Shown: one piece after another, positions 3,776 through 62,880 of the stretch
How the letters are laid out: every line of letters begins with the position of its first letter
How positions within the stretch are numbered: the first letter of the stretch is position 1
Origin: Candidatus Omnitrophota bacterium
GTDB lineage: Bacteria; Omnitrophota; Gorgyraeia; Duberdicusellales; 4484-171
Direction: 5' to 3'
Assembly: GCA_003154195.1 (NCBI GenBank)
Contig: PMCS01000029.1
Location: 132,547-196,546, forward strand
Length of the DNA: 64,000 nucleotides
Position numbers and translations under genes: made by a program
Notes under the pieces: generated by a model
Told to the model about the DNA's origin: nothing
Databases searched by the model: none
Seen by the model: the letters and a program-made list of their open reading frames with translations, nothing else

Positions 3776-3965
3776 CCTCCTTATTTAAGACTCGGTTAGG
3801 ATAAGGGTAACGATGCCGGTATGAGCTATGGTTAAGGTAATGGTTTTATTTTTTAGCCTTAACCCTTACCTTAACCTAAACCGGCCTTCCGCCTTCGCCA
3901 AAGGCTTCGGCGAGACTTCTCCGAAGCTCAAAGAGCGAAGGAGAGCCTAACCCTAGCCTTAACCA
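3776..3965. repeat. GGTTAAGG/CCTTAACC-type ~190-bp intergenic repeat (family 1), copy 1
   Basis: Near-identical in reverse complement to 28868-29062; related copies at 19062-19182, 61603-61731, 62747-62880. Confidence 0.8.
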
Positions 3966-3971
3966 TATTTT

Positions 3972-4547
3972 TTACAGCCCTTCCTCATCCATCGGCCCAC
4001 GGCCTTCTCCGGAGCCGTTACTTTTTTGACGGTTCACCCCGCCATGCCCTTCTTTTCCTTGAAAACCACCAGAACGGCCCTGTTTATCCTGCTTACGGTT
4101 TTGCAGGTGCTCTTTCATCCTCGCCTGCATTTTAGCAAATTGTTCCGGCGTCAAAATCTCTTTTAAGGTTAAAATATGGTCTACTCTGGCATCAATAAGC
4201 TGTCCCTGAAGCGCCTTTAACTGAGCGACAACGGGTTCGATGGCCGCGCGCGTCGCGGAAGGATTTTGCAGCGCCGCTTTTAATTCCTGCCGTTTTTGCT
4301 TCACCGCTTCGCGAAGTTTTTGCATTTTCTCGCGGCGGCCCTGGCGGCCTTCCTGAAGTTTCTGGCGCTGCGCGTCCGTCAAATTAAGCTCGCTCGCCAG
4401 ACGGCCGGCCGGCCCCTTATCTTCGCCCTTTGCTTCTTCTTTGATTTGTCCTTTACCCGGCGCGGGGTTTCCCGCCCAAGCCAAGGCAGTAACCGTTAAC
4501 GCCATAAACACCAGAGCTGCTTTGATTATCTTGGTTTTATTATTCAT
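3972..4547 (-). CDS. periplasmic Spy/CpxP-family (LTxxQ motif) protein
   Basis: Signal peptide after internal Met (MNNKTKIIKAALVFMALTVTALA) with GGAGG RBS; LTDAQRQKL and LTPEQFAKM motifs; ORF-track N-terminal extension likely not translated. Confidence 0.6.
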   Translation of the reverse strand: MNNKTKIIKAALVFMALTVTALAWAGNPAPGKGQIKEEAKGEDKGPAGRLASELNLTDAQRQKLQEGRQGRREKMQKLREAVKQKRQELKAALQNPSATRAAIEPVVAQLKALQGQLIDARVDHILTLKEILTPEQFAKMQARMKEHLQNRKQDKQGRSGGFQGKEGHGGVNRQKSNGSGEGRGPMDEEGL

Positions 4548-4665
4548 CTTCGCCACCCTCCTCGCCTTCTTAGACAACCCCGAAACCTGTAAAAGTTTCC
4601 TGGATTTTTCTTGGAACCGGAAAAATACTCTGCGCCGGCGCGGCCGGCATGCAGGCATTTTCCGG

Positions 4666-5040
4666 CTAACTTTTAATAAGTTGGTTGATTCCGTTAAATA
4701 AATCCTCCGGTTTAAAAGGTTTGGTCAAATAAATATTCGCTCCGATTACCCTGCCGACGACCCTATCAACATCATCCGTTTTGCCGGTGAGCATGATAAC
4801 GGGGATCTTTGCCGTCGTTTCGTTTTTGCGTATTTGCCGGCAGATCTCTTCGCCGGGCAAGGCGGGCAATTTTAAATCAAGGATCACTAAATCCGGCGGA
4901 TTATGGAAAATCTTATCCAACCCGCTTTTGCCGTCACGCGCGATATCCGTATCAAAGCCCCAGCTCTTTAAACGCGAATCGAGGAGCTTACAAATATTCT
5001 CGTCATCATCAATGATAAGGATTCTTTTTTTATTTTCCAT
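4666..5040 (-). CDS. single-domain response regulator (CheY-like receiver)
   Basis: 124 aa; IIDDD...ILDLKLP...LTGK...KPF receiver signature. Confidence 0.75.
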   Translation of the reverse strand: MENKKRILIIDDDENICKLLDSRLKSWGFDTDIARDGKSGLDKIFHNPPDLVILDLKLPALPGEEICRQIRKNETTAKIPVIMLTGKTDDVDRVVGRVIGANIYLTKPFKPEDLFNGINQLIKS

Positions 5041-5080
5041 GGCCGCACTATGTAAAAAATATTCGCTCTAACCAAAAAAT

Positions 5081-5566
5081 TTATAAAAAATTATCCGCCG
5101 CCTCATTTTCCACAGTATCGGTCTCACCAAGACGGTCACTATCCAACGACGCGAGAAACTGCGCCGCTTCATAAATCGACTCGCCCACCTCATAATTCTG
5201 GCGGGTAATCCTTCTCTGGGAAAATACCGTCAAGCTGATCATCAAAGCAAAGGTAACGCCCGCGGCCACAAGCTTGGGTACCGTAAAAAAGCTTATTAGC
5301 CCTGAACAAAAATAATCAAATCTATCTTTCAGGCTGATTTTGCCCAGAGTTATTTCCTCTTTTATGTTATGCCATACCGCTTCCGGCGGCTCGAGTTCAG
5401 GCGCGTTCCGGAAAGGAAAACGCGCGGCCTGCTCCAGGTTCGCGAGAAAATCGCGGCAGGCATTACACCGGGATATATGTTCATCGATATTCTTGCGCCG
5501 GTCCGGGGAACACCGGCGGTCAAAATAATCACCCAGTAACCATTCTTGTATTTTTCTACACTCCAT
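5081..5566 (-). CDS. putative anti-sigma factor (zf-HC2-like Cys/His motif, C-terminal TM)
   Basis: CRKIQEW...HISRCNACRDF motif; start chosen at MECRK with GGAGG RBS 9 nt upstream; downstream of ECF sigma. Confidence 0.5.
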   Translation of the reverse strand: MECRKIQEWLLGDYFDRRCSPDRRKNIDEHISRCNACRDFLANLEQAARFPFRNAPELEPPEAVWHNIKEEITLGKISLKDRFDYFCSGLISFFTVPKLVAAGVTFALMISLTVFSQRRITRQNYEVGESIYEAAQFLASLDSDRLGETDTVENEAADNFL

Positions 5567-5636
5567 CGGGCACCGCCTCCCTAGCCGGAAAAATGCGTTT
5601 CCGCATTTTTTCCTATTTAGCCCAGAAAATTCTTGC

Positions 5637-6197
5637 TTACCGACAGGCATTTTCTGGGCTAACAGCATATGCCATCAATGCCTGACGCGCCCGTTTAAGG
5701 CGGGAACGTACGGTATTGATCGGTATCGATAACGCTTTGGCGATTTCTTCATAACTCAACCCTTCGATTTCCCGCAACATAATCACCGTCCGCTGGTCGG
5801 GATTAAGCCTATCTAGAAGAGGCTTGAGCTTCTCCTGACGATCATGTAATTCTAACTGGGCGGTTTGTGGTTCAACCGAGACTTCCCGAGGTGATACATC
5901 ATCGATATTTACCTGGCGCTTGCGTTCTTTCGCCGTCCGCCGATAATGGTTGATCGCCGTGTTAACCGCGATGCGGTAAACCCAGGTTTTAAAAGAAGCG
6001 CGAAAAGCGAAACTCTTTAAATTACGGTAAATCTTAACGAATACTTCCTGCGTTACGTCCTGGGCGTCATGGCGGTTGTTAGTGACCCGCATTGCCAGGG
6101 TATACACAAACGAGCTGGCTGTCCGGTAAATTTCTTCAAACGCTTCGATGCCGCCGCCTGCCGCTTTTATCAATACATCCCGGCTAATTGTATCCAT
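5637..6197 (-). CDS. ECF (sigma-70 family, sigma-24 type) RNA polymerase sigma factor
   Basis: 186 aa; region 2 (VFVKIYRNL...WVYRIAVN) and region 4 (LSYEEIAKALSIPINTVRSRL) signatures. Confidence 0.85.
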   Translation of the reverse strand: MDTISRDVLIKAAGGGIEAFEEIYRTASSFVYTLAMRVTNNRHDAQDVTQEVFVKIYRNLKSFAFRASFKTWVYRIAVNTAINHYRRTAKERKRQVNIDDVSPREVSVEPQTAQLELHDRQEKLKPLLDRLNPDQRTVIMLREIEGLSYEEIAKALSIPINTVRSRLKRARQALMAYAVSPENACR

Positions 6198-6354
6198 ATC
6201 CTTTTACCGTTCAATATCTTAGACAATATGGTTATTAAAAAAGTTCCTTCCGGCGGCGCGGGATTCCCCTCTTCCACAGCTAAACAGCTCTTTCCTGAAA
6301 AAATGCGCCATGTCTGCTTATCGGCCCGCTTCGCCCGCGAAGCGAGGCGAGCAG

Positions 6355-6633
6355 TCAGGCCTTTTCCCTGTTAAGATTACCCAATTGCTTTTCTACAACC
6401 CATTTCTCCGGTTTTACTTTCGCCAGAAACCAGGGAGCGCCGTTGGCGAGCCAGCGTTTGCGGAAAACGGCGAACGCCTCGCGGCCGTCAGCCACGTCAA
6501 AGCCGAATTCAAAACCGCAGCAGGGACAAATCTCATAGGAAGGTATATTACTTTCGCCATAAGGCGGCTCTTTTAACCCGTCAAAGCCGCACACCGGACA
6601 GATATATTTTTTTTCCCTCATTGTTTCGACCAA
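6355..6633 (-). CDS. zinc-ribbon protein (hypothetical)
   Basis: CPVCG...CPCCG paired CxxC motifs; overlaps upstream lipoprotein gene by 16 nt (operon). Confidence 0.4.
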   Translation of the reverse strand: MVETMREKKYICPVCGFDGLKEPPYGESNIPSYEICPCCGFEFGFDVADGREAFAVFRKRWLANGAPWFLAKVKPEKWVVEKQLGNLNREKA

Positions 6634-7028
6634 TACCGGTAATCGGTTTTAAAATAGGTTCGAATCCGGCCGCCGGCGGTCATCACCGCGAACTCGCCGC
6701 TGCTGACCCGGTAGCGTAAGATGTCGCCGTTAGATCTGGACTTGCCCAACACATCGTTATCCGGCGGCGTGTTCAACAAGGCGCGGGCGTTATCTAAATA
6801 TTGCTCCTGGGTAATCCCGCCGAATTGATCGCCGTGTTTTAAATAATGCGCCTCCAATTCGCCGGGCGCAAAATCCCCTGCCGGAACACCGGCCACATAA
6901 GTAGTATCGGTTTGTGGGATAGAAGACACCGGGGCATTGGACGGGGAACAAGCCGCCGTAAAAAAAGATATAAAAACAAGAAAAAGATACCCGGCGGCAA
7001 TTTTACGCGCGCGATTTTTTGTCGGCAT
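6618..7028 (-). CDS. lipoprotein, hypothetical (weak barnase-like C-terminal resemblance)
   Basis: Lipobox LVFISFFTAAC after internal Met; C-terminal RIRTYFKTDYRYW segment vaguely like microbial RNase; unassigned. Confidence 0.35.
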   Translation of the reverse strand: MPTKNRARKIAAGYLFLVFISFFTAACSPSNAPVSSIPQTDTTYVAGVPAGDFAPGELEAHYLKHGDQFGGITQEQYLDNARALLNTPPDNDVLGKSRSNGDILRYRVSSGEFAVMTAGGRIRTYFKTDYRYWSKQ

Positions 7029-8841: not shown

Positions 8842-8943
8842 GAGTAATCCATTATATCTGAAACTTACAAAAAAACATATTTTGTTTACAGCCACATAAT
8901 CAAACTATTTTCCCTGTAAACATTAAGCATGTTCACATCATCC

Positions 8944-9837: not shown

Positions 9838-9909
9838 TGTTTATAACCTTAATCATTCCGGAGAATTTTCGAGAGTTTTGCTATCCTAATATCCCAACGC
9901 AGTTGTTGT

Positions 9910-10559: not shown

Positions 10560-10589
10560 TATTTTACGATATCCTGCTGTTTCATGTTG

Positions 10590-10880
10590 AAATTATAGTA
10601 TCATACCGGTTTCATCGGTCAAGATTTTTATCAAGGATTGACGTAAAAGTCTATAAAGATTATTAAATCTGTAAAGATCATAAAAATTGTAAAAACCACA
10701 TAAAACAAAAAAGCTTAATAAAATCAAAGATGCTTGATTTTATTAAGCTTTTTTGTTAAAAATGGCGGGGACGAAGGGACTCCATCCGTTAAATCAAAAT
10801 AAGCGTTGATTTCATTAGTTTATTTTACGTTTCATCGCTTTGGTGTGTAGTAAATTGGGTAGTAAAATCGATGTAATTTT
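10590..10880. repeat. ~230-bp direct repeat carrying a 17-nt copy of the tRNA-Asp 3' end (10763-10779) plus terminator hairpin; att-like boundary, copy 1
   Basis: Shares AAAAAGCCTAACAAAATCAAAAGATGCTTGATTTT(A/G)TTAGGCTT...AAAAATGGCGGGGACGAAGGGA and ~100 further nt with 13430-13660; left part also shared with the intact tRNA-Asp locus at 15590-15790. Confidence 0.8.
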
Positions 10881-10968
10881 TATTTAGCAGTTAGCAGTAA
10901 TTCTTCGATTTTATAGTATCGCGTACGCGGCGCGTTTTTGCAAGTTTCTTTGCCTACGTATCCTATAA

Positions 10969-11679: not shown

Positions 11680-11722
11680 CTATACCTTTCTTTTTAGGTC
11701 TACGTTTGTGTATTATTAAGTT

Positions 11723-13353: not shown

Positions 13354-13429
13354 ATACCTTCCTTTTAGTTATTGGCATATGCTAATAATACCACCTTAGC
13401 ATCATTCGTCAAGCTGAAAAGGTTTATAT

Positions 13430-13660
13430 AAAATTATAAAAATCCTGAAAATTGTAAAGATTATAAATCTAGTGAAAACCCCATAAAAACAAAAAAGCCT
13501 AACAAAATCAAAAGATGCTTGATTTTGTTAGGCTTCTTGCTTAAAAATGGCGGGGACGAAGGGAATCCATCCGTTAAATCGAAATAAGTGTTGATTTTAT
13601 TAGCTTATTTTATCTTTTTTCACTTTGGTGTGTAGTAATTTGGGTAGTAAAATTGATGAA
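13430..13660. repeat. ~230-bp direct repeat with tRNA-Asp 3'-end fragment (13548-13564); att-like boundary, copy 2
   Basis: See 10590-10880. Confidence 0.8.
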
Positions 13661-13721
13661 AATTTTTGGAGTTTTATTGCTATTGCGGTATCCGAAAAAA
13701 ATATTAATTGGAAAGGACGGG

Positions 13722-15369: not shown

Positions 15370-15707
15370 ACTATAACAGCGGAGGTTTTATCCTACATAG
15401 CTGTTACCGCGTTGCCACTTAAAGCCGGGCCTTTTAAGACAGAACGTAGGGAATTGAACCCCTGGTTATCGCCAGGTGGAAGTGCAACTGCAAAACCGTC
15501 GGGAGATTCCAGACGATTGCCGGCATCTTCCAATTATTATTATCCCACGAACATCTGAAAATACAAGAATGCTGCAAGTTCTTTGTGACGTAAAATTATA
15601 CAAACCTTAAAGATTATAAAAGCTGTAAAAATCCTAAAAACCATAAAAACCAAAAAAGCCTAACAAAATCAAAAGATGCTTGATTTTATTAGGCTTTTTG
15701 TTAAAAA

Positions 15708-15786
15708 TGGCGGGGACGAAGGGATTTGAACCCTCGGTCACATGCGTGACAGGCATGGGTCTTGAACCGGGCTAGACGACGTCCCC
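15708..15786 (-). tRNA. tRNA-Asp (anticodon GTC), CCA encoded
   Basis: Cloverleaf readable by eye; anticodon loop CTGTCAC; its 3' 17 nt are duplicated at 10763-10779 and 13548-13564. Confidence 0.75.
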
Positions 15787-16123: not shown

Positions 16124-16338
16124 AAATGAGGCTTAGCCGAGTCCAAGTCCGAAGGACGCCGGACGAGGCTGTAGCCGAATTTGCCCGGCAAATGTTCAAA
16201 AATTGTCGAAGAGAATTTTTGAACGGTTTATGAGCCGGGACGAAAGATATGAAAACATGCCTAATATTTCAATGAGGACTTTCCCGCGTTTTTGACGCGG
16301 GAAAATTATACCATTCTTTTTGCCAAAGGCAAAAAGAA

Positions 16339-16423: not shown

Positions 16424-16806
16424 AATTTTAATTTTTACTTCGTAAAAATTAAAATTGCCGCCCCCTTTTTACTGAACAAGTTCAGTAAAAAGGGGGAAAT
16501 GCATATAAAAGTGAGTAATTTTTCAATTTGTTAAACGATCGACAAGACTTTAAATATTTGCCGATTGTTATCTATTTTGGTTTTTGTTTCTTCTCTTTTC
16601 CCATCCACGAAGTGGATACCACTTTTTATTTCTGCCTATAGGCAGAAATAAAAAGGCGACGAGCGGATTTTTGAGCACCTTAATACATTATATAGCGAAA
16701 TCCCGCCGAGTATTTCAAAAATATCGAAGAGATTTTTGAAATGTTTACGAGACGGGAGAACCGCTCTCCCCCACCTTCCCGGATTCCCTATCCAAATTAC
16801 CAAACG

Positions 16807-16878: not shown

Positions 16879-16891
16879 GATAAAAACCCGG

Positions 16892-17107: not shown

Positions 17108-17108
17108 T

Positions 17109-18551: not shown

Positions 18552-19048
18552 ACCTTCCTTTCTGATTTTTCTGCCACGATTATTTTCGTGGGGTAAAGTT
18601 CATATACTATTTCGTCAGGCTCAAACCAAAGCTTAATTTCCCTTTGGGCCTCATCGGGCGAACTGGAAGCATGTATTACGTTTTCATAAAGGCCGTTCGT
18701 CAAAATCCTTCCGTAGGCGCCGCGAATGCTTATCGGTTCCGCCTCTTCCGGGTTGGTCGCCCCGGCGATATCCCTTACTTTTTGTATCGCGTCCTTCCCC
18801 CAGTAAACCAACGCCATCACGCGGTTTTCACCGTGCAGAGAACCGGTAATATATTTAATGAGTTCCTGGAAAAACGGCTTATCCTTGAGATGGCTGTAAT
18901 GTTTCACCGCGAGCTCTTCTTCTACCACCATAACTCGCGCGCCGATAATTTTAAGTTTTGTTTCGGAAAGGCGGCTTAAGATATTTCCCGTGAGAGATTT
19001 CTTCAAACCGTCTGGTTTGATAATAACCAGCGTCGCTTCGTTGGGCAT
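18542..19048 (-). CDS. ndk: nucleoside diphosphate kinase
   Basis: NVIHASSSPDEA matches the NxxHxSD active-site region; 168 aa with C-terminal extension. Confidence 0.8.
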   Translation of the reverse strand: MPNEATLVIIKPDGLKKSLTGNILSRLSETKLKIIGARVMVVEEELAVKHYSHLKDKPFFQELIKYITGSLHGENRVMALVYWGKDAIQKVRDIAGATNPEEAEPISIRGAYGRILTNGLYENVIHASSSPDEAQREIKLWFEPDEIVYELYPTKIIVAEKSERKVWA

Positions 19049-19061: not shown

Positions 19062-19182
19062 ACTTGGTAAAGGTTATGGTAATGAAGCCGGTATAAAAAC
19101 TTGGTTAAGGTAAAGGTTTTAAGATTAGTATCAACCTTCGCCTTGCCTTAACCCAAACCGGCATCGTAACCTTAACCTATAT
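19062..19182. repeat. family 1 (GGTTAAGG-type) intergenic repeat, shorter copy between parB and ndk
   Basis: Shares GGTTAAGG...CCGGCATCGTAACCTTAACC ends with other copies. Confidence 0.6.
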
Positions 19183-21023: not shown

Positions 21024-21115
21024 CATAACGCAAATCACCAGAAATACTGTCATTAATTCATAACTCATTGTGCCGCAATGAGTTATGAATATTTTAATCC
21101 TCTTCTCTATCCCCT

Positions 21116-21131
21116 GTTTTCACGTGAAAAC
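21116..21131. promoter_or_regulatory. parS-like 16-bp perfect palindrome GTTTTCACGTGAAAAC (copy 1)
   Basis: Resembles canonical parS TGTTNCACGTGAAACA around a CACGTG core; 4 copies between parA and yidC. Confidence 0.55.
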
Positions 21132-21283
21132 GGCTGGCTGGTTAGATTACCTTTCGCACAATCCCACGCACCAATAACCAAACTTTGGGGAAAATAGTTC
21201 ATCCCTTGCATAGTTGGAACAGATTACCGGTTCATTTAATTCTAAACGTAACAAGGCAATGGTTAACCAAATAACTCTGCCCC

Positions 21284-21299
21284 GTTTTCACGTGAAAAC
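21284..21299. promoter_or_regulatory. parS-like palindrome (copy 2)
   Basis: Identical 16-mer. Confidence 0.55.
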
Positions 21300-21356
21300 G
21301 TAATTATAGTTTAATACTTAATTTAGTTTTTGCAAGAAATTTCTGCGCCCTGACCA

Positions 21357-21372
21357 GTTTTCACGTGAAAAC
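21357..21372. promoter_or_regulatory. parS-like palindrome (copy 3)
   Basis: Identical 16-mer. Confidence 0.55.
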
Positions 21373-21526
21373 GGAAGCGGTTCCGCGTACGTCAGGTAAA
21401 TATTTTTCGCACGTTTCAAATAGTGGAAAACCTGTGAAAATTGTGATTTCATGCAAATCGGCAACCTGCAGGTGTGGTTTTCTGGTGCATGAATAAACGG
21501 GAAAAATACATTTCCCGGGTTACCGC

Positions 21527-21542
21527 GTTTTCACGTGAAAAC
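21527..21542. promoter_or_regulatory. parS-like palindrome (copy 4), abutting yidC stop
   Basis: Identical 16-mer. Confidence 0.55.
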
Positions 21543-21543
21543 G

Positions 21544-22980
21544 CTATTTTGACCTGGCAAGATGAATTTGATAGAGGAGAGTCAAAAAATTCTGAATAAA
21601 CCAGTAAAGGGCTAAACTGGAAGGAAAATTATAGAAAATAACCCCGATAAAAACCGAAAAAAACAGCCCCATTCGTCTTTGGTCAACAGAAACCGCAGGG
21701 GAAACGGTAAATCTTTGTTGCACTAAACCCACACCCATTATTAAAAGCGGTATGATATTGATATAATCCACAGGGGGTGGAAACCCGAGCTTGATTGCGT
21801 GATCGGGAAGAGTTAAATCTTTAATCCACAAAAACTTAGCGCCTTTTAACTCGGTAAGACTTAAAAAAACCTGATAAAGCGCAAAAAACAAAGGAAACTG
21901 CAAAAAAACCGGCAAACATCCGCCGATTGGATTTACTCGGTATGTTTTATAAAGTTCCAATATTTCACTATTTAATTTTTGGGGATTATCTTTATACTTC
22001 ACTTTCAATTCTTCAATATGCGGCTGAATTGCTTGCATTTTTTTCATCGCCCGAGTGCTTATATTCGTAAGCGGAAACAGGATGATAAAAATTAAAATTG
22101 CTAAAATTATTATGCCTAACCCCCAACTTTTGGTAAGGTCATGACAAAAAGAGAATAGTTTGACAATAATAACACCAATACCATGAAAAAAACCATAATG
22201 TATAACACTTTGTAAACCAAAGGGTTGCAACGATTTTTGTAGTTGAGGGCCCACATACAAAGTCACTTCGGGCAGAGGAGAAACAAGGAGCAATGAAACA
22301 TTATTTTTGTTATCTTTGGCCCACTGAATATCATATTCGCCTTTAATTAAAGAGGCGCAAAAATATTGGGTCCGGCTGCCGGCAAAATCAACTTTTTCTA
22401 CCAACTTATCTTTTACTTTAGGCAGCGGCATCCGTTCCATCAGCAGGTTTTGAGAATAATAAATTCCTTGATACCTGTGCTGTAACTGGTTGGCGCTCAA
22501 AATGTTATGAAATAAAACCATCGAAGAAAATGGTGAAACCTTGATGGTAATTAAGTTTCCCTCAAAAATAAACTCTTTGCGGATATTATCGGCAGTAAAA
22601 ATAAGACGGTTTTGGTTAATGTTTACGGAAAATTTCTTATCCCGGTCAGCCGGAGTAAAACCGATATCTTTGATCAATAAGTCATCTGTGGGATAAGAAT
22701 TTAATTTTACAAAACTTACGTAACCACCGATGGCAGAATAAGTTATGGTGAAATTGTCCAATTTAAGTTCAGGTAAAGATGCAGTAACTTCTTGAGGAAC
22801 ATTAACGCCGGAAGCAGGAGCGGTAGAGGATTGAACAGCTTGTTGTGGCGTAACAGGTTGCTTTGATTGCTCACCTAACGGGACAGTATTTTTAGGAAAA
22901 TATTTAGCCCCGATATAGGAATAAACAGTTAAAAAAAGAAAACTCACTACAATTGCGGCAATAAATCGTTTGGTATCCAT
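21544..22980 (-). CDS. yidC: membrane protein insertase YidC
   Basis: N-terminal TM, periplasmic domain, C-terminal 5-TM Oxa1 core (MKKMQAIQPHIEELKVKYKDNPQKLN...). Confidence 0.85.
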   Translation of the reverse strand: MDTKRFIAAIVVSFLFLTVYSYIGAKYFPKNTVPLGEQSKQPVTPQQAVQSSTAPASGVNVPQEVTASLPELKLDNFTITYSAIGGYVSFVKLNSYPTDDLLIKDIGFTPADRDKKFSVNINQNRLIFTADNIRKEFIFEGNLITIKVSPFSSMVLFHNILSANQLQHRYQGIYYSQNLLMERMPLPKVKDKLVEKVDFAGSRTQYFCASLIKGEYDIQWAKDNKNNVSLLLVSPLPEVTLYVGPQLQKSLQPFGLQSVIHYGFFHGIGVIIVKLFSFCHDLTKSWGLGIIILAILIFIILFPLTNISTRAMKKMQAIQPHIEELKVKYKDNPQKLNSEILELYKTYRVNPIGGCLPVFLQFPLFFALYQVFLSLTELKGAKFLWIKDLTLPDHAIKLGFPPPVDYINIIPLLIMGVGLVQQRFTVSPAVSVDQRRMGLFFSVFIGVIFYNFPSSLALYWFIQNFLTLLYQIHLARSK

Positions 22981-24985: not shown

Positions 24986-25084
24986 AGAATAAGCTGTGTA
25001 AAAAAATATGGTTATTGTTTTATTTTTATTGGGATCAATAATTAATAACAGTTTTCACAGGCCCTACTACAACAACTACTTTTT

Positions 25085-26184
25085 ATGAAGTTTATTATTA
25101 ACAAAGAAGAGTTAGCGCAAAAACTACAAATCATTTTTGGCCCAACCACAACCAAACAAAACTTCCCCATTTTAAACAGCGTCTTAATCTCCGCATTAAG
25201 TAATAATAAACTTAGATTTATTACTACTGATTTAGATATAACTATAATATCCTCTCAGGAAGCTACAGTTAGTGAAACCGGTGAGATAGCTATACCGATG
25301 AAACGGTTTATTTCTATCGTAAAAGAATTACCCCCGCACAATATCACCATCGAAACAACAAAAAATAACCTTTTAATAAAATGTGAAAAAATCGAATTCA
25401 AATTAAATACTTTAGATCCTAAAGAGTTTCCTATTATTGAAGAGGTGAAAAAAATATCATTAATAAAAATAAATTCTTGCGATTTAGAAGAAATGATCCG
25501 CCTAACCTCTTTTTGTGTAGGGTATGAAGACACGAATTATGTGTTAAATGGAATATTTTTTGAAATATCCAATGACAATATAAATACTATCGCTACCGAC
25601 GGTAAACGTCTTTCTTTTATAAGTAAAAAATTACCCGCCAGCCAACCAGAGGTAAAAACAAAAATTTCTTTTATTCTCCCCATAAAAGCAGTTAATGAAC
25701 TTTACAAACTAATTAAAGAAGAAAATAGTGAGATTTTCCTCTCGATAGAAGAAAATAAAATAACCTTCGATTTAAAAGGAACACAATTTATTGCCCGGCC
25801 CATCGAAGGGGAGTTCCCTAATTATTCACAATATATACCTAAAGAAAATAAAGATAAGCTTAAAATTAACCGGTTGCAGCTTATCCTGGCTTTAAGAAGA
25901 GCTGATTTATTGTCCACCCCCGATTATCAAGGGGTAAAACTGGAGTTAAAAAAAGACGGGCTGGTTGTTTCCAAAAATACGCCCCAGTTGGGCGAAGTAA
26001 AAGAACTTCTCGATGCCCAATACGCCGGCGCGGCTTTACAAATAGGGTTTAATCCTAATTATCTCATTGACGCACTGAAAAATTTAGAAGACCAGGATGT
26101 AAGTTTTGAATTTTTCGGCCCGGATAAACCCGCAGTTTTAAGAAAAGAAAATTATATCTATTTAACCCTACCCATAAAAATGTA

Positions 26185-26185: not shown

Positions 26186-28852
<2,667 letters not shown>

Positions 28853-28867
28853 TTCGGCCGGATAATT

Positions 28868-29062
28868 AAAAGGCCGATAATAATCGGTTAAGGCTAGGGT
28901 TAGGCTCTCCTTCGCTTTTTGAGCTTCGGAGAAGTCTCGCCGAAGCCTTTGGCGAAGGCGGAAAGCCGGTTTAGGTTAAGGTAAGGGTTAAGGCTAAAAA
29001 ATAAAACCATTACCTTTACCATAGCTCATACCGGCATCGTTACCCTAACCCAATCAAAATAA
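28868..29062. repeat. family 1 (GGTTAAGG-type) intergenic repeat between gyrB and gyrA, inverted relative to 3776-3965
   Basis: Near-identical reverse complement of 3776-3965; ends ...GGCATCGTTACCCTAACCCA 5 nt before the gyrA ATG. Confidence 0.8.
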
Positions 29063-29066
29063 ACAT

Positions 29067-31514
29067 ATGCCCGACAACGTCCCTATACAAGAAAAAGTTT
29101 TGTCGCGCGATCTCGAAGAAGAGATGAAGGATTCCTACCTTTCCTATTCGATGAGCGTTATTATCGGCCGCGCCCTGCCCGACATCCGCGATGGGCTTAA
29201 GCCCGTGCACCGGCGGATCATGTACGCGATGCACGAGCTGCATCTGCATCATTCCAATCCCCATAAAAAATGCGCCCGCGTGGTCGGTGAAGTTTTGGGT
29301 AAATATCATCCGCACGGAGATATCGCCGTTTATGACGCGTTAGTGCGCATGGCTCAGGATTTTTCTTTGCGCTATCCGCTGGTCGACGGCCAGGGAAACT
29401 TTGGTTCGATTGACGGCGACCCGCCGGCAGCGATGCGATATTCTGAAGCGCGCCTGACGCGTATCGCCGATTATGCCCTGCAGGATATCGATAAGGATAC
29501 GGTTAACTTTTTCCCCAATTTTGACAATTCTTTGATGGAACCGGAGGTTTTGCCTTCGGTGATCCCGCAGCTTTTAGTCAATGGCGCCAGTGGTATCGCC
29601 GTAGGCATGGCGACTAATATTCCCAGCCACAACATCGCCGAAGTCTGCGATGCCATCGCTTATATTATCGATAATCCCGGCGCGAGCATCAAAGAGCTTT
29701 GCCGTTATATCAAGGGGCCGGATTTTCCCACCGGCGGCATCATCTGCGGCAAGAGCGAAATCATGAGGATGTATCAAGAAGGTAAGGGTAAGCTTACCGT
29801 CCGCGCTAAAGCCACAATCGAACATGAAAAAAACCGCGCGCAGATTGTGATTACCGAGATTCCCTATCAGCTTAACAAAAGCAATCTGATGGAATCTATC
29901 GCTAATCTTATTAACGAAAAGAAAATAGAAGGCATTTCTGATTTGCGCGACGAATCGGATAAGGATGGTATAAGGATTGTGCTGGAAGTCAAACGTGACG
30001 CCCAGCCGGAAATAATTCTTAACCAGCTTTATAAGCATACTAATTTAGAGACAACCTTCGGCGCGATTTGTTTGGCGATTGTCAATCGCAAACCGCAGAT
30101 TTTAAATTTAAAAGAATTTTTAAGCCATCACGTGACTTTCCGCAAGGAAGTTATTGTGCGCCGGACTAAATTCGAACTCGACAAAGCGCAGCAGCGCGCC
30201 CATATCCTGGAAGGGTTAAAAATCGCGCTGAAGTTCCTCGATGAAGTGGTTAAACTTATACGGAAATCCAAAAGCCCCGAGGAAGCCAAGGCCGGGCTGA
30301 TGGATAAATTCGACCTGTCCGATGCTCAAGCTCAGGCAATCCTGGAAATGCAATTACAGCGGCTCTGTGCTTTAGAGCGGGAGAAGATCGAACAGGAATA
30401 TCTGGAATTGATTAAGAGGATAGAATATTATAATTTGATTTTAGCGTCGGAGAAAAAACAGGAAGCTTTGATTAAAGAAGAGCTGAAAGAAGTGAAAGAA
30501 AAATTTTCCGATCCGCGCCGCACCGAGATCGTCGCGCAAAAAGAAGAGATCGAGATAGAAGATTTGATCGTGGAAGAAGATATGGTAGTAACAATCACCG
30601 GCTCCGGCTATATCAAGCGCCAGCCGCTGACCGCTTACCGGCAGCAGCGCCGCGGCGGACGCGGGGTAACAGCGATGACCACGGCGGAGGAAGATTTTGT
30701 CGAACATCTGTTTGTCGCTTCCAGCAAGGACACGCTGCTTTATTTTTCCAATGAAGGAAGGGTTTTTCCCACCAAAACCTATGAGATTCCCGTGGGCACG
30801 CGCCAGGCCAAAGGCCGCTCGCTGGTTAATTTACTGAATTTAGGAAACCAGGAGAAAATCACCGCTGTCCTTTCGGTGAAAGAATTCGACGACAAGCGGT
30901 GTATTTTTATGGCTACGCAAAAGGGTGTCGTCAAGCGTTCTTCCCTGGATTTATTCGCCAATGTGCGCAAGAACGGTATTTGCGCCATTACTTTAGAAAA
31001 AGGCGACCAGTTGATCGGCGCGGGGCCATGTTCCGAAAACGACCAGGCGATTTTGGCTACCAAAAAAGGCCTGGCCATACGTTTTAACACCAAGGATATC
31101 CGTCCTACCGGCCGCCAGTCACAGGGCGTGCGCGGAGTGAAATTAATCAAAGATAATATCGTGATCGGCATGGTGCTTTTAGAGGGGACGCTGAAAAAAG
31201 AAGATTTTTACCTTATTACCGCTACTTCCAAGGGGTTCGCCAAGAGGACCGATATCGACGAATACCGGATACAATCACGCGGCGGCAAGGGCATAATCAA
31301 TATCAAGCTTTCCGAAAAAATCGGCCAAGTAGAAGGATTAGTCCTGGCGCAGGAAAACGACGAGTTGATGTGTATCACCCAAAAAGGTATTCTTATCCGC
31401 TCCAAAGTAAAAGACATCCGTTCTTCCGGCCGTTCTACCCAGGGCGTTAAGATTATCAATCTTGACGAAGGCGATAAGCTTGCCATGATTGCCCGTATTA
31501 TACCGGAAGACTAA
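29067..31514 (+). CDS. gyrA: DNA gyrase subunit A
   Basis: Active-site Tyr region ([10 protein letters not shown]), GyrA box and C-terminal beta-pinwheel repeats. Confidence 0.95.
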
Positions 31515-31638: not shown

Positions 31639-31712
31639 GTCCCCATCGTCTAGCCTGGTTTAGGACATCGCCCTTTCACGGCGACGGCGCCAGTTCAAAT
31701 CTGGCTGGGGAC
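31639..31712 (+). tRNA. tRNA-Glu (anticodon TTC)
   Basis: GTCCCCATCGTCTAGCC...anticodon loop CTTTCAC...GGGGACG; 3' 17 nt duplicated at 31815-31831; flanked by twin AT-rich hairpins. Confidence 0.75.
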
Positions 31713-31888
31713 GCTTTTTTTGGAAAAGTAGTTCTTCAGCCCAAGCGAGGCCAGTTCTCTCGCCTGCACTTCGTTCGGCGGGATTTCGCTGGATAGCGGC
31801 ATTACGGTGCTCAAAAATCTGGCTGGGGACGTTTTATTTTTTACTGCGTAAAAAATAAAACCTTTCCGCTTCGCGGGTGCAAAAACTA

Positions 31889-34646: not shown

Positions 34647-35054
34647 ATGAAAGTTATTGTTGCTACAGTCTGTGAACATGCCTGGGTGGAAAACGGCTGC
34701 CTTTCTCTCTGTCGCACTTTTGACAGCATCTCGGCGGATAAATTTCCCTATACTTTGCCCCGAATGGGTATCGCTATAAGGCTGTTGGCCCGGCGTAGCG
34801 AAGCCGGCGAGCATAAAATAGCGATTCATATTGCCGATGCCGACGGGAAAGAGTTGATGCGGGCCGATTGGAATTTAAACGTTGCCGTGCCTTTGGAATT
34901 AATACCCGAATCTTCTTTTTCCTTCGCTCTCAACGGGCAAAACGTTGTATTTTCGGCGGCCGGCGATTATGCCGTTGATGTGATAATCGATTCAAGAGTG
35001 GAAGTAAGTATCCCGATATATGTTAGGGAGAAAAGCGGAAGTAAGACCGGCTAA
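34647..35054 (+). CDS. hypothetical protein
   Basis: 136 aa from MKVIV; no recognisable motif. Confidence 0.3.
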   Translation: MKVIVATVCEHAWVENGCLSLCRTFDSISADKFPYTLPRMGIAIRLLARRSEAGEHKIAIHIADADGKELMRADWNLNVAVPLELIPESSFSFALNGQNVVFSAAGDYAVDVIIDSRVEVSIPIYVREKSGSKTG

Positions 35055-35055
35055 A

Positions 35056-35165
35056 ATAAATTTTAAATTTAGCATTGAACAATGGCCATTTTAAATTGTG
35101 CTGACCAGTTGGTCCCAATGATAATTGTTCAATGATCAATGTTCAATTTAAAATGAATTATTCGC
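35056..35165. repeat. family 3 intergenic repeat (TTTAAATTGAACATTGAT/CCATTGAACAAT core), copy 1
   Basis: Related copies at 36318-36420 and 43393-43492, each in a stop-to-start intergenic gap. Confidence 0.7.
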
Positions 35166-35838: not shown

Positions 35839-35974
35839 TGTTATTCCGCTTCGTTGCTTGGAATAAAAATATGCTTTGCGCATTTTTATTCCACTACGCG
35901 GGATTAATCCGACTACAGTTTTTTCCTCCGCGTGTGGCGCTTGGAAAAAACTAAGTCTCATTAAGGAGGGAAAG

Positions 35975-36301: not shown

Positions 36302-36453
36302 AGGATTAGTTTAAAATAATATTAATTTTAAATTTAGCATTGGGCAATGATCATTTTAAATTGGCTTAATACTTTTTTTGATGATAATTGTTCAATGGTC
36401 AATGTTCAATTTAAAATGACAATCAATATAAAACATATTATCAAGGAGAAAAA

Positions 36454-41273: not shown

Positions 41274-41756
41274 ATGGACGATATTTTAGAGATATTGGAG
41301 CAAAACGCGCGGACATCAATGGAAGATTTGGCTAAACTTACCGGAAAAACCAAAAAAGACGTGGCGGCGGCGATAAAAAATTATGAGAAGAAAGGGGTAA
41401 TTGTAAAATACAAGACCGTCATCGATCGAAGCAAAACAAAAAATAACGGCGGAGTAACCGCGCTCATCGAAGTCAAGGTGACGCCGCAAAAAGATGTCGG
41501 TTTTGACGGCATCGCCGAACGCATCTACAAATTTCCCGAAGTAAAAAGTTGCTACCTTCTTTCGGGGACGTACGATTTACTCCTTTTGATCGAAGGTAAA
41601 GATATCCATACGGTAGCCAATTTTGTTTCGGAAAAATTGGCGCCACTCGATTCGGTAAAGGGCACTTTCACCCATTTTATGCTTAAGAAATATAAAGAAG
41701 ACGGCGTAATGATTGCGGGCGAGGAGAAGAATAAACGATTGGCGATAACGTATTAA
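41274..41756 (+). CDS. Lrp/AsnC family transcriptional regulator
   Basis: N-terminal HTH (ILEILEQNARTSMEDLAKLTG) and RAM/ACT C-terminal domain; GAGGGAGG RBS. Confidence 0.8.
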   Translation: MDDILEILEQNARTSMEDLAKLTGKTKKDVAAAIKNYEKKGVIVKYKTVIDRSKTKNNGGVTALIEVKVTPQKDVGFDGIAERIYKFPEVKSCYLLSGTYDLLLLIEGKDIHTVANFVSEKLAPLDSVKGTFTHFMLKKYKEDGVMIAGEEKNKRLAITY

Positions 41757-42079
41757 ATGAGACTTCGATTTTTCCAAGCCCGAAGGGCGCAGGGAAAATC
41801 GGTAGTCGAATTAAACCCCGCCCTTTTGGCTGGGGTAATTGGATAAAGAAACGGTTTATTACAATTTTAAGGGAGTCATTTTTAAAAAAAGTCTAATTTA
41901 ACGATAACGCCAAAAGGGCGGGGTTTTCACCGCCTTCCTTAAATAATTATTTTAGGGAAGCGGGATCCCGCCAAAGGCGGGAAATTCGCAGACGGCCTTG
42001 GCATCTAAAATGTCAAGGCCTATGATTTAAGAAATTTGGTAAAATTTCCTAAATCATCTGCTCATTAAAGGAGGTACAC

Positions 42080-43386: not shown

Positions 43387-43515
43387 AGACCTTAAATTTC
43401 ATTTTAAATTGTTCATTGGGCATTGACCATTTTAAATTTTAGAAAATGATAAATGTCCAATGATCAATGATAATTTTAAAATGAATTAATCATCGGTTTT
43501 CGGTCAAAGAAAATA

Positions 43516-51472: not shown

Positions 51473-51477
51473 CCCCG

Positions 51478-59619: not shown

Positions 59620-59793
59620 GAGTAGAAAGAAGACCGTAGGACGTGGGACGTTCGCGGCAGTAGCCGCTGGGACGTAGGACGAAAAAGACCAATCGTTTTT
59701 CTTGTTTTTTCCAGACTTCTAAACTTTCTGGAACATTCCTTCCCCCATAATTTCCTTGTTTTTCGCCTAACTTATGGTAAATTAATTATTCCT

Positions 59794-60789
59794 ATGATTA
59801 AAGAAATTGCTACGCCAAAATTAAAAAATCCCGTATGCATCGCCGCCTGGCCGGGGATGGGTGAAGTCGCCTACCGTGCCGCGATTTTTTTAAAAGAAGT
59901 CATGGGGTTTAAAATGTTCGCCAAGCTGGAAGCGGCGGAGTTTTTTAAACCCGCGGCGGTGTTTGTGGAAAAGGGCATTGTCAGCCTGCCTTCGATGCCG
60001 GCGGGATTCTTCTATTACCTCAAGGGAAAACATTTTCCCGATATCATCCTGTTTATCGGCGAAGCCCAGCCGCCCCTGGAATACGCCGAAGACCTCTCTT
60101 ATTCTCTGGTAAATTTCCTGAAAAAATATAAGACCAAATTTATCTTTACCTTTGCTGCCAAGCCGGAGTCGATCGACCATAAGGGTGATTCTTTGGTCTG
60201 GATGGCGGGGACGCATCCGGAAGTCCTCAAAGACTTCGAAAAATTTCATTTAAAGATTTTAAGCGAAGGCCAGATCAGCGGCCTTAACGGGATTATTCTG
60301 GGCGCCGCTAAAAGTAAAGGCATCAAGGGGACCTGCCTTTTGGGCGAGATACCTTTTTACACGGTACAGATAGAAAACCCCAAGGCTACCCACAGTATTC
60401 TTAAGATTATGAACGAGTATCTCCAGCTTAATCTGAATCTCGCGCCCTTGCAGGAAAGAGTAAAATTTATCGAACAGGAAATCGATAAACTGATCGATTA
60501 TTTAAAAGGAGAGGGCGATGGCGCCCAGCATCCTTCTGTCCCCAGCAGCGGCCCGTTGCCGTTAAGCGAAGACGATATCGAAAAAATCAAAAAAGACTTG
60601 GCCGGTTACAGCAAATTACCCCAGTCGGCGCGGGAAACCATTGAGGTGCTGTTTAAGGACGCGCAGAAAGATATCGCCAAAGCCAACCAATTAAAAGGAG
60701 AGCTTGACCGCTGGAACGCCTACAAGGAATACGAAGACCGCTTCCTCGATTTATTCAAGAAGAAAGACAAGCGCGACGAGACCCATTAA
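59794..60789 (+). CDS. PAC2-family (proteasome-assembly-chaperone-like) protein
   Basis: NPVCIAAWPGMGEVA N-terminal signature; family 2 repeat begins right after its stop. Confidence 0.55.
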   Translation: MIKEIATPKLKNPVCIAAWPGMGEVAYRAAIFLKEVMGFKMFAKLEAAEFFKPAAVFVEKGIVSLPSMPAGFFYYLKGKHFPDIILFIGEAQPPLEYAEDLSYSLVNFLKKYKTKFIFTFAAKPESIDHKGDSLVWMAGTHPEVLKDFEKFHLKILSEGQISGLNGIILGAAKSKGIKGTCLLGEIPFYTVQIENPKATHSILKIMNEYLQLNLNLAPLQERVKFIEQEIDKLIDYLKGEGDGAQHPSVPSSGPLPLSEDDIEKIKKDLAGYSKLPQSARETIEVLFKDAQKDIAKANQLKGELDRWNAYKEYEDRFLDLFKKKDKRDETH

Positions 60790-60931
60790 TGAGACTTAGA
60801 TTTTCTCAAGCGCGAAGAGCGCAGAGAAAATCTGTAGTCGAATTAACCCCGTGGAGTGCGATGAAAATATGCGAAGCAGATTTTCGTCGCGGGTAACGAA
60901 GCGGGGCAGTAAATTTGATTATTGGGTGCCC

Positions 60932-61603
60932 ATGCCTTCCCGGAAATATTTAACCGTCACCCAGATACGCAAACTTGAAGAAAAAGCGAAATGCCTCGGT
61001 TTAAGCGAACGTCTGCTTATCGAAAACGCTTCCAGTAACCTTGCCCAGATCATCGATTCCCTGAATTTAGGAAAAAATTTTTTAGCCGTTGCCGGGAAGG
61101 GGAATAACGGCGCCGATACCCTCGCTTGCGCCCGAAAATTGGCCGCTAAGGGATATGCCGCGTGCGCGGTAATCCTCGCCCATGATTCTGTAGCCTTGAG
61201 TGAAGAAGTTATTTTCCAGAAGAATATTTTAGAAAGAATCGCGCCGGTCGATTTAGTGAACGAAAGCAATTTGGCGCGATTATCCCAGGCGTTAAAGACG
61301 AGCGATTTTTTAATTGACGGCATCTTCGGCATCGGATTAAGCGGGCCAATCTCTTCCTTTTTCCTCAGCGCGATCGATTTAATCAACCGGAGCAAAAAAC
61401 CCGTTGTCGCCTGCGATATCCCCTCCGGGTTGCATCCGGATACGGGGGAAATCCTCGGCGGGGCAATAAAAGCCAAATATACCATAACATTTATCGCCCC
61501 TAAGCGGGCATTTTTTTTACCCCCGGCAAAAAAATTCTGTGGTAAAATATTGATGGCGGATATAGGGATACCTTTGTTGAAAATACGCCAAAGAAACCGG
61601 TAA
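60932..61603 (+). CDS. NAD(P)H-hydrate epimerase (YjeF N-terminal domain)
   Basis: AVAGKGNNGADTLACAR...DGIFGIGL motifs; overlapping minus-strand 259-aa ORF judged spurious. Confidence 0.7.
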   Translation: MPSRKYLTVTQIRKLEEKAKCLGLSERLLIENASSNLAQIIDSLNLGKNFLAVAGKGNNGADTLACARKLAAKGYAACAVILAHDSVALSEEVIFQKNILERIAPVDLVNESNLARLSQALKTSDFLIDGIFGIGLSGPISSFFLSAIDLINRSKKPVVACDIPSGLHPDTGEILGGAIKAKYTITFIAPKRAFFLPPAKKFCGKILMADIGIPLLKIRQRNR

Positions 61604-61731
61604 TAATCGGTTAGGGCTAAGGCCAGGAAGCCGGTTTGGGCTAAGGCAACGGTTAAGGCTGGTACGAATTTACAGCCATAACCTTTACCATAACCCATAC
61701 AGGCATCGTTACCCTAACCCAGTTTTAAATT
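61603..61731. repeat. family 1 (GGTTAAGG-type) repeat ending at an ATG
   Basis: ...GGCATCGTTACCCTAACCCAGTTTTAAATTATG; the same terminal 30 nt precede the ATG at 62881. Confidence 0.75.
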
Positions 61732-61902
61732 ATGACCAAACTCGAATTGATCATCGCTTGGGTTGCCGGCACGATTATGGCGGTAGGGTGGTTTTTATTT
61801 TACTATCCGATGTCTAGTGCCGGATATATTTTTAAATACGTGACGCCCTCCGCCATATTTTTTGCTTTAGGGTTTGTTACGTTAACCAGAAAATTTAAGT
61901 AA
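61732..61902 (+). CDS. 56-aa two-TM small membrane protein (hypothetical)
   Basis: Not in ORF track; ATG supplied at the end of the family 1 repeat. Confidence 0.35.
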   Translation: MTKLELIIAWVAGTIMAVGWFLFYYPMSSAGYIFKYVTPSAIFFALGFVTLTRKFK

Positions 61903-62100
61903 TAAGTATCAGGCCCCTTCGCGTTGCTCAGGGCAATGAAACTCGGCTCGCCGAATACGGCGGGGCTTAGTTTCATTGATTCGACCATCGCTTCGTCCGG
62001 CGCCCGCTTCGACTCGCGTCGAGCGAGGCGAGCGCTTTGCGCTTGATAATTCAACTAAGCCCGGGGCACCGGGCAAGTTTCATTACAGTGAAGTTTCATT

Positions 62101-62745
62101 ATGCGGATAAGTTTTTTCGGCCACTCATCATTTTTTATCGAGCAGGAAGGGGGCATAAGAATTATCACCGACCCCTATGAGCCGGGATGCTACAACGGAA
62201 CTCTGCAGTATGCCCCCATTGACGAATCTGCCGATATCGTCACCATTTCCCACGGCCATGCCGACCATAATTTCGCTTCCGGTTTTCCCGGCGCGAAAAT
62301 CCTGGATAAAGAAGGAAGTTATAATATTCTCAATATCGATATCGAAGGGATTCTTTCCTACCACGACCGCGCCGAAGGGAAATTCCGGGGGAGAAATGTC
62401 ATCTTTGTGATAAAAAGTGAGGGGTTAAAAGTCGCTCACTTCGGCGATTTGGGGACTACCAATATTAACTATGAAAAATTAAAAGATATTGACGTGGCGA
62501 TGATGCCGGTGGGAGGCCATAGTACCGTCAGTACGGCGGAAGTTAATTCTCTTTACGAAAAATTAAACCCGCGGATTTTTCTCCCCATGCACTACAAGAC
62601 CGGTAAGCTCGATTTTGACATCGCCACCGAAGAAGAGTTTTTAAGCGGCAAGACCGATATCGAGGTTCTCAACGACATTGAAATAACTTGCGCGACTATC
62701 AAAAGTTTCCACAAAAAAATAATTATGTTGAATTACCAGCGTTAG
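62101..62745 (+). CDS. MBL-fold metallo-hydrolase
   Basis: ISHGHADH zinc-binding motif. Confidence 0.75.
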   Translation: MRISFFGHSSFFIEQEGGIRIITDPYEPGCYNGTLQYAPIDESADIVTISHGHADHNFASGFPGAKILDKEGSYNILNIDIEGILSYHDRAEGKFRGRNVIFVIKSEGLKVAHFGDLGTTNINYEKLKDIDVAMMPVGGHSTVSTAEVNSLYEKLNPRIFLPMHYKTGKLDFDIATEEEFLSGKTDIEVLNDIEITCATIKSFHKKIIMLNYQR

Positions 62746-62746
62746 A

Positions 62747-62880
62747 TACTGGGTAAAGGCTAGGGTTACGAAGCCGGTTTGGGCTAAGGCAACGGTTAAG
62801 GCTGGTATAAATTTACAGCCCTAACCTTAACCCTGGCCAATATCGGCTTCCTAACCCTTGCCCTAACCTAGTTTTAAATT
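62747..62880. repeat. family 1 (GGTTAAGG-type) repeat ending at an ATG
   Basis: Near-identical to 61603-61731. Confidence 0.75.

Follow-up and report, generated by a model that had tools for sequence, protein, structure and literature searches.

A palindromic repeat with hexamer-built arms dispersed in operon spacers of an Omnitrophota genome

Five copies of one repeat family

The stretch analysed here, 64,000 nucleotides (nt) of contig PMCS01000029.1 of a Candidatus Omnitrophota bacterium (assembly GCA_003154195.1, positions 132,547 to 196,546; hereafter the window), carries five copies of an intergenic palindrome that we call Family 1. The element has colonised many short spacers between same-strand genes, nearly always with its G-rich arm first, and it is probably a lineage-specific, non-autonomous, dispersed palindromic repeat of the general kind of REPIN, ERIC/IRU, BOX and the bacterial MITEs (miniature transposable elements with inverted repeats). 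The original prediction, made from the letters of the window, had taken it for a mobile promoter or 5'-untranslated-region (5'-UTR) cassette and not for debris. A dispersed family resembling repetitive extragenic palindromes (REP) or MITEs is indeed present beyond chance, but the element carries neither a promoter nor a start codon.

The homology of the five stretches (copies 1 to 5, beginning at 3776, 19062, 28868, 61603 and 62747 as first delimited) is borne out by an nhmmer profile built from them, which recovers exactly these five in the 64 kb (E = 1e-29 to 1e-42, with nothing further below E = 0.1). The motif GGTTAAGG occurs 16 times on both strands vs 2.6 times expected from shuffles, with 13 of the 16 within copies, and the end motif GGCATCGTTACCCTAACC (allowing up to three mismatches) occurs six times vs 0.06 expected, every time within a copy. 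Copies 1 and 3 are 97% complementary across 166 nt. Adding 10 kb on each side of the window yielded no extra copies, the right-hand minus-strand genes included. Matches to the window come from Stordalen Mire assemblies (WOOD18 scaffolds and GCA_003154645.1), and 12 contigs carry its GyrA; the ten that we read are 99.5-100% identical to the window and show no presence/absence or sequence difference in their Family-1 copies. Given that the gyrB-gyrA copy is unchanged in all ten, which stem from independent ENA, JGI and NCBI assemblies, the assembly artefact that the original prediction had named as its possible undoing is excluded.

Outside the window, a 20-nt motif scanned against metagenomes hit 27 loci, of which five (L024, L039, L033, L035 and L034) are chance matches inside coding sequence. 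Full non-redundant copies number 16, five in the window and 11 on fen metagenome contigs, and there are truncated ones besides. Among the 16, the mean pairwise identity over the core is 78% (67%-95%), and 97% is reached when the insert described below is included. When one genome per GTDB species was scanned for GCCGGTTTRGGYTAAGGYAA, only 10 hits came up, all singletons from unrelated bacteria and roughly as many as chance would give, and the representatives with the motif include neither the source species nor any carrier; neither arm motif matched viral contigs. Copies 4 and 5 are 78% identical and share L037a as nearest relative (82%), and since they are not each other's nearest relatives, we rejected the idea that they are local duplicates bearing the ATG. 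Copies in truncated or composite form are found in L027, L040 and at L046:2440, and one orthologous locus in two other metagenomes holds a complete but diverged copy in the first (L047) vs a decayed half-copy in the second (L030). At 500-3300 of L046, small paralogous genes stand in a row, separated by three Family-1 copies; the N-termini of these paralogues (…RKAQSTAEY / KAQGVLEY…) resemble Flp-type pilins.

A long hairpin with six-nucleotide periodicity

The palindromic organisation noticed at the outset proved to be a long imperfect hairpin with a strict 6-nt periodicity. Without insert the element measures about 111-118 nt, and each arm consists of nine hexamers that keep one phase, those of the 5' arm following (GGNTAR)n and those of the 3' arm (YTANCC)n. 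When aligned, the left arm reads GGTTAA GGCTAG GGTTAG GAAGCC GGTTTG GGTTAA GGCAAG GGTTAA GGCTGA and the right arm AAGCC TTTACC TTAACC ATAACC CATACN GGCATC NTTACC NTTACC CTAACC. The autocorrelation reaches 0.53 at lag 6 and 0.47 at lag 12 vs 0.1-0.2 at out-of-phase lags, and the GG and CC dinucleotides keep a single phase modulo 6. Within each hexamer, on either arm, GG, TA and CC never vary, whereas positions 3 and 6 are free to drift. The mid-section is asymmetric, with GAAGCCGGTTT on the left and CATACNGGCATC on the right, and together with a loop of about 11 nt it gives the element its polarity. An A-rich leader, TAATAATC, stands before the hairpin and a T-rich tail, NNGTTTTTAA, after it; a run of four to six T directly 3' of the stem is found in about 11 of the 16 copies and is absent from copies 1, 2 and 3. 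The tail TTTAAATT recurs, for example in L025, and in most cases a Shine-Dalgarno site comes after it.

Two of the window copies are longer because of a 60-nt insert nested between the outer stem and GCCGG. The insert represents one unit of a module of about 41 nt, CTCCTTCGCTCTTCGAGCTTCGGAGAAGTCTCGCCGAAG, which is present at one fixed site in zero to at least three tandem units among the copies (one in L028, two in L027, at least three in L040). Tandem arrays of this module were seen at 3011-3108 of L022, 1227-1326 of L027 and 7768-7903 of L040.

With coordinates that span the hairpin between its outermost GG and CC hexamers, both included, copy 1 is a long form on the minus strand (3794-3964; nhmmer E = 1.4e-31; fold -73 kcal/mol, z = -3.7). 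It lies between an LTXXQ/Metal_resist gene (stop 3972-3974) and a gene for 155 amino acids (aa) (ATG 3767-3769), its tail at 3770-3793 contains AAGGAGG, and its insert (3886-3945, minus strand) consists of one CTCCTTCGC...GCCGAAG module unit plus CCTTTGGCGAAGGCGGAAG and forms a side hairpin of its own. Copy 2, a short form on the minus strand (19066-19177), separates parB, whose TAG stop (19177-19179) overlaps the first G of the element, from ndk (ATG 19046-19048); nhmmer gives it 111.8 bits on the minus strand vs 53.8 on the plus strand, and it is the minus strand that carries the orientation marker GCCGGTTTGGGTTAAGGCAA. The long copy 3 on the plus strand (28886-29050, insert at 28905-28964 on the same strand) stands between gyrB (stop 28850-28852) and gyrA (ATG 29067), with the leader TAATAATC at 28878-28885 and a 16-nt tail that has no T-run. 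Copies 4 and 5 are short forms, both on the plus strand. The former (61609-61719; nhmmer E = 1.7e-39) follows YjeF_N, whose stop (61601-61603) falls within the leader GGTAATAATC, and its tail CAGTTTTAAATT (61720-61731) abuts the ATG of an orphan open reading frame (ORF) of 56 codons. The latter (62751-62868; nhmmer E = 1.6e-42; fold -68 kcal/mol, z = -7.2) is flanked by Lactamase_B_3 (stop 62743-62745) and a UPF0280 gene, and its tail TAGTTTTAAATT (62869-62880) abuts the ATG at 62881.

Folding of both strands, which had been suggested as a check, yields the hairpin in every copy (-40 to -78 kcal/mol, z -3.4 to -7.7), the sense strand doing no better than the antisense. Folding is weaker on the sense strand in 9 of the 16 copies, with a mean difference of 1.95 kcal/mol, so there is no sign of RNA-specific G-U pairing. 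No compensatory base changes back a selected structure. The RNAalifold covariation term is -0.21, and under an explicit structure of 42 pairs 87.1% of the cells pair, exactly the mean of column shuffles (87.1%; 291 of 500 shuffles reach or exceed the observed value), with seven pairs changed on both sides vs 5.2 in shuffles. The pairing is carried by the invariant GG/CC and TA columns, and the drift at hexamer positions 3 and 6 is uncompensated. In a search of Rfam 15 only six tRNAs of the window reach the gathering score, and Family 1 does not; with the limit relaxed to E <= 1, the only hits of the elements are to eukaryotic miRNA precursors, scoring 19-24 bits vs cut-offs of 73-80, as generic hairpins do. 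A consensus terminator scan of 61000-63200 and 28500-29400 does not call the copies, because the loop exceeds 8 nt and the stems are imperfect.

Position and polarity

Every copy sits between genes. For those in the window, the left end falls anywhere from a 1-nt overlap with the upstream stop codon to 33 nt past it; across all copies the distance extends to about 50 nt, by a rougher measure based on the hidden Markov model. From the last CC of the hairpin to the downstream ATG there are 24, 17, 16, 12 and 12 nt in copies 1 to 5, and the gap between hairpin and start codon is 13-37 nt at the other loci. The original prediction had four copies abutting a gene start; the proximity to starts holds, but the number is five, given that copy 2 reads on the minus strand like its flanking genes and ends 17 nt before ndk. 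The G-rich arm comes first relative to both flanking genes in 15 of the 16 full copies (binomial two-sided p ~5e-4). The sole reversed one is L022:543-667, and GC skew does not explain its orientation. The window's single divergent spacer holds no Family-1 copy.

Empty sites in the nearest relatives

A comparison of related genomes for presence or absence, also proposed originally, found the copies absent from the orthologous spacers of the nearest relatives. The best homologues of the window's GyrA, up to 79% identical, bear the names Candidatus Omnitrophota or Omnitrophica, and relatives with 77-79% GyrA identity retain the gene order dnaA-dnaN-dciA-gyrB-gyrA. The gyrB-gyrA spacer measures 214 nt in the window vs 8, 63 and 97 nt in these relatives, and the Family-1 profile has no match in 85 kb of the relatives' DNA, the gyrB-gyrA copy being absent in L048-L052. 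The spacer between YjeF_N and Lactamase_B_3 measures 497 nt in the window, where it holds copy 4, the 56-codon ORF and another repeat, vs 8 and 43 nt in relatives; that between Lactamase_B_3 and the UPF0280 gene is 33 nt in L054. The YjeF_N-Lactamase_B_3-UPF0280 loci of L053 and L054 contain no Family-1 copy, their sites being empty. These short, element-free spacers mark the copies as lineage-specific insertions into operons that were already co-transcribed. The insertions are recent relative to speciation, since the spacers of the nearest relatives lack them and one pair of copies is 95-97% identical.

The relatives carry unrelated hairpins of their own, with arms of 6-7-nt units and the purine- or G-rich arm first, in the same types of spacer, gyrB-gyrA included. 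They were seen in L048 (805-870, 9640-9695, 12551-12634 and 13153-13248), L049 (9905-9990 and 21416-21477) and L053 (3870-3990). Their units are CAGANNA/AGCTNNC in L048, GGTTTTN in L049 and GATTACAC in L053.

Promoter and start codon

The element does form the upstream context of several genes, whose starts are immediately preceded by its T/A-rich tail, and the junction AGTTTTAAATTATG common to the starts at 61732 and 62881 is real, as originally described. This identical junction, the 12-24 nt between the 3' end of the element and the start codon in five of five window copies, and an A/T-rich tail that could be an unstructured ribosome landing site are what speaks for a mobile cassette, a promoter or 5'-UTR that would drive the gene after it and could lend it a start codon. 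We nevertheless regard such a cassette as highly improbable. A consensus scan for sigma-70-like sites (-35/-10, 16-18 nt spacing) found none in 61000-63200 and none in 28500-29400. Every window copy lies at most 33 nt 3' of the stop of a same-strand gene, and none has entered the one divergent spacer. The ancestral spacers of 8-43 nt show that the gene pairs were operonic before the element arrived.

The claim that the repeat itself supplies the ATG is refuted. The ATG at 62881 encodes the M of MYQHRFYR, the beginning of a UPF0280 family protein whose residue 2 aligns to profile position 7. Of the 38 UPF0280 homologues whose N-termini were read, 36 start with MYQ/EER[F/L/V]YR, and in the other two the start is called further upstream of that motif; neither of the two homologue loci fetched contains a Family-1 copy. 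The conserved MYQ N-terminus and these element-free loci together make the ATG at 62881 ancestral. The UPF0280 gene in L054 is likewise without a Shine-Dalgarno site. As for the 56-aa ORF at 61732, it is an orphan that matches only itself among 1.84 billion representative proteins, it is uncalled in the public annotation of the scaffold, and it lies in the 497-nt lineage-specific insertion. This ORF has two hydrophobic stretches, and a G+C-rich repeat neighbours it at 61903-62100. In 13 of the 16 copies other sequence, often a Shine-Dalgarno site, intervenes between the tail and the ATG, and since the tail TTTAAATT is also found in L025, only the ATG of the junction of copies 4 and 5 lies outside the family consensus.

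Selfish repeat or selected module

In our reading as a lineage-specific dispersed repeat, how the family spread, whether the element is transcribed and what it does to mRNA are matters of inference. Copies would be made by strand-specific copying or transposition, or else only one orientation would survive selection. The element would be co-transcribed in the polycistronic mRNA, where a hairpin of about 50 bp may loop the insert out and keep the upstream stop and the downstream ribosome-binding site 20-60 nt apart, which would account for its being tolerated even in the gyrB-gyrA spacer. Any influence on expression would be a side effect, whether of cleavage of the long duplex by a double-strand RNase, of protection of the upstream cistron's 3' end or of incomplete termination at the T-run. 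Pairing at the level of shuffles, the decayed half-copy in L030 and the truncated and composite copies are signs of a selfish element.

Several observations weigh against this reading. Neither a transposase domain (Y1/RAYT, DDE or other) in the 84 kb of window and flanks nor a cognate full-length element was found. A 480-aa ORF in L046 was considered as a transposase and rejected, its Tc3-type helix-turn-helix hits being sub-threshold and no Family-1 ends lying around it. The whole element is an inverted repeat whose ends fade into the A-rich leader and the T-rich tail; neither sharp ends nor a target-site duplication can be defined, and no flanking direct repeat is common to the copies, so that mobility is inferred from the distribution of the copies and not from a mechanism. 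The orientation bias is not assignable to transcription over replication, because gene direction agrees with fork movement to either side of oriC and GC skew tracks the coding strand everywhere; together with the conserved T-run, it could reflect a selected function. Finally, invariant GG, TA and CC beside drifting positions 3 and 6 are unlike the simple decay of a selfish hairpin and hint at sequence-specific recognition. The invariant hexamer positions are accounted for by none of the readings discussed here.

The element could also be a selected cis-acting RNA module within operons: it might terminate partially or attenuate, offer a double-strand RNase processing site and so decouple the stability of neighbouring cistrons, or hold stop and start close for translational coupling, and it would then spread because it is useful. 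The co-orientation of 15 of 16 copies with their genes, the tail NNGTTTTTAA right after the stem in about 11 of 16, its absence from the spacer of the essential pair gyrB-gyrA, in which termination would do harm, the constant placement from stop overlap to 33 nt past the stop in the window and with the hairpin ending 12-37 nt before the start, and the strongly stable folds are all consistent with this. However, pairing is no better than in shuffles and covariation is lacking, the sense strand folds no better than the antisense, terminator scanning does not call the sites, decayed and truncated copies exist, and the nearest relatives run the same operons without the element, which makes such a module possible but unlikely in our view. 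Given the analogous hairpins of the relatives, Omnitrophota could possess a distinct class of intercistronic hairpins, with arms of 6-7-nt units that differ by lineage, inserted strand-specifically in operon spacers. These would spread by an undescribed single-strand copying that reads periodic units, or would serve as a phylum-wide processing or coupling device in polycistronic mRNAs; this we hold to be distinctly unlikely.

Recognition could also take place on DNA. If GGNTAR, repeated every 6 bp on both arms, were an array of protein-binding sites, the palindrome and its hairpin would be secondary, and the invariance of GG, TA and CC per hexamer, the uncompensated variation at positions 3 and 6, the single phase of all hexamers of an arm and the occupation of the same kinds of spacer by different 6-7-nt-unit families in relatives would fit. 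We consider this very unlikely, since no candidate protein is known, with a 6-bp spacing neighbouring sites would not face the same side of the helix, there is no reason why a double-stranded site should follow gene orientation, and the non-periodic core and loop are as well conserved as the hexamers. Readings of the hexamers as CsrA, Hfq or Rho sites, as Shine-Dalgarno/anti-Shine-Dalgarno mimics or as G-quadruplexes were also weighed and set aside. A non-mobile origin, with each hairpin arising locally by slippage of a hexamer microsatellite and snap-back template switching and the copies resembling one another by convergence, is scarcely credible. It would agree with arms made of degenerate tandem hexamers and with the analogous but unrelated periodic hairpins in relatives, yet GAAGCCGGTTT, the loop GATACNAATTTACAG, CATACNGGCATC, the leader and the tail follow in the same order in all copies, and two copies 25 kb apart are 97% identical, their nested insert included.

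Comparison with known repeats

Proteobacteria, firmicutes and cyanobacteria are well known to carry small palindromic repeats. For the Omnitrophota, which are uncultured and mostly ultra-small, we found no description of such repeats in the literature retrieved, and the main genome survey of the phylum is silent on repeats. Family 1 is most likely a new family of this familiar bacterial kind, newly seen in Omnitrophota, and what sets it apart from the textbook picture is only its strict construction from hexamers and its one-sided orientation.

The ERIC/IRU elements of enterobacteria are imperfect palindromes of about 127 bp in transcribed intergenic regions, co-transcribed with the flanking genes; longer variants arise through internal insertions at fixed sites, and in yersiniae the orientation of the element influences the stability of flanking mRNA. 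Family 1 is likewise an imperfect intergenic palindrome with fixed-site insertion variants. ERIC, however, is found in both orientations, has no hexamer periodicity and belongs to another phylum, and its sequence appears to be unrelated. In the BOX elements of Streptococcus pneumoniae, which are intergenic and co-transcribed, the outer modules pair as a stem and an internal module is present in variable tandem number. The 41-nt unit of Family 1, in zero to at least three repeats, parallels that internal module, whereas the Family-1 core is itself a complete hairpin with the module inside one arm, and the sequences are unrelated. The MIRUs of Mycobacterium are intercistronic and operon-oriented, with ends that overlap the flanking stop and start codons. 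Family 1 resembles them in lying between cistrons, in following the operon and in ending at stop and start codons, but MIRUs are tandem direct repeats with small ORFs and Family 1 is a hairpin. BIMEs bind integration host factor and gyrase.

General reviews cover REP, REPIN and MITE elements (PMC3184786, PMC3116915, PMC3733652). Like Family 1, REPIN and REP-BIME elements are extragenic, about 100 nt long, symmetric and multicopy, with a long predicted hairpin in single-stranded DNA or mRNA, and they form clusters and nested or composite arrangements with lineage-variable sequence (PMC3116915). The arms of Family 1 are hexamer arrays without internal palindromes, whereas a REPIN consists of two short self-palindromic inverted REP units, and a GTAG or CGTC head like that of REP is at no conserved position in the 16-copy alignment. 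Compensatory changes are frequent in REPIN hairpins (PMC3116915), while in Family 1 there are none above chance. REPIN are also mobilised by RAYT, a Y1 transposase whose single-copy gene is flanked by the repeats and which was not seen in the 84 kb of window and flanks, and unlike Family 1 they are not tied in orientation to gene direction. Correia/NEMIS and other MITEs are small, non-autonomous, gene-adjacent repeats whose transcribed hairpins are cleaved by RNase III in Neisseria, and they are bounded by discrete terminal inverted repeats, duplicate their target site (TA in Correia elements) and have a cognate insertion sequence (PMC3184786). Family 1 shows filled and empty orthologous sites as these elements do, but terminal inverted repeats, target duplication and cognate insertion sequence are not demonstrable for it, and the promoter elements carried by Correia elements were not found.

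A compact genome thus tolerates hairpin insertions of 110-170 nt in essential operons, gyrB-gyrA included. Family 1 explains inflated spacers and spurious small ORFs in these metagenome-assembled genomes (MAGs), it is a likely cause of contig breaks, and it could serve as a strain or lineage marker.

Replication origin region and other repeats

The GC skew changes sign at about 23 kb of the window, which together with the gene set (yidC, parA, parB and ndk on the minus strand; dnaA, dnaN, dciA, gyrB and gyrA on the plus strand) indicates that the window spans the replication origin region. Beside the origin, between parA and yidC, the palindrome GTTTTCACGTGAAAAC is present four times at 21109-21546, copies that we take to resemble parS centromere sites. 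The genes pyrR and pyrB (476-2082, minus strand) lie to the left of the origin and are downstream of gyrA in the relatives L048-L050, which is a rearrangement across the origin. The window's gyrB and gyrA are free of inteins; inteins are present in the GyrB of L048 (5973-9635) and in the GyrA of several related Omnitrophota (P0011, P0071, P0095 and others). Otherwise identical assemblies are separated by indels at 25062-25096, 25077-25095 and 31684-31835 of the window. L011 is without 19 nt between dnaA and dnaN, which shifts the called dnaN start, and the NCBI MAG contig L016 is without 35 nt and 152 nt, the larger gap reaching into tRNA-Glu.

The 3' end of tRNA-Asp (15708-15786, minus strand) is directly repeated at 10756-10787 and 13541-13572, within 194-nt repeat blocks (10646-10881, 13429-13666 and 15600-15732). 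These repeats look like att-site duplications; the blocks enclose methyltransferase, DUF134, NYN and Band_7 genes, and no integrase was found.

Three further repeats were noticed. One, a family of A/T-rich hairpins whose unit measures about 7 nt (CATTGNN), is present at 35052-35163, 36317-36426 and 43393-43491, and it adjoins a truncated Family-1 copy in L027/L032. An intergenic family, AATGAGACTT...GTAGTCGAATT, is found in both orientations at 16125-16187, 35846-35964, 41756-41818 and 60786-60904. Lastly, the A/T-only palindrome TTTTATTTTTTACGAAGTAAAAAATAAAA follows directly after gene or tRNA ends at 16426, 17734, 31516, 31832 and 36809 and is terminator-like, standing for example 2 nt past the gyrA stop.

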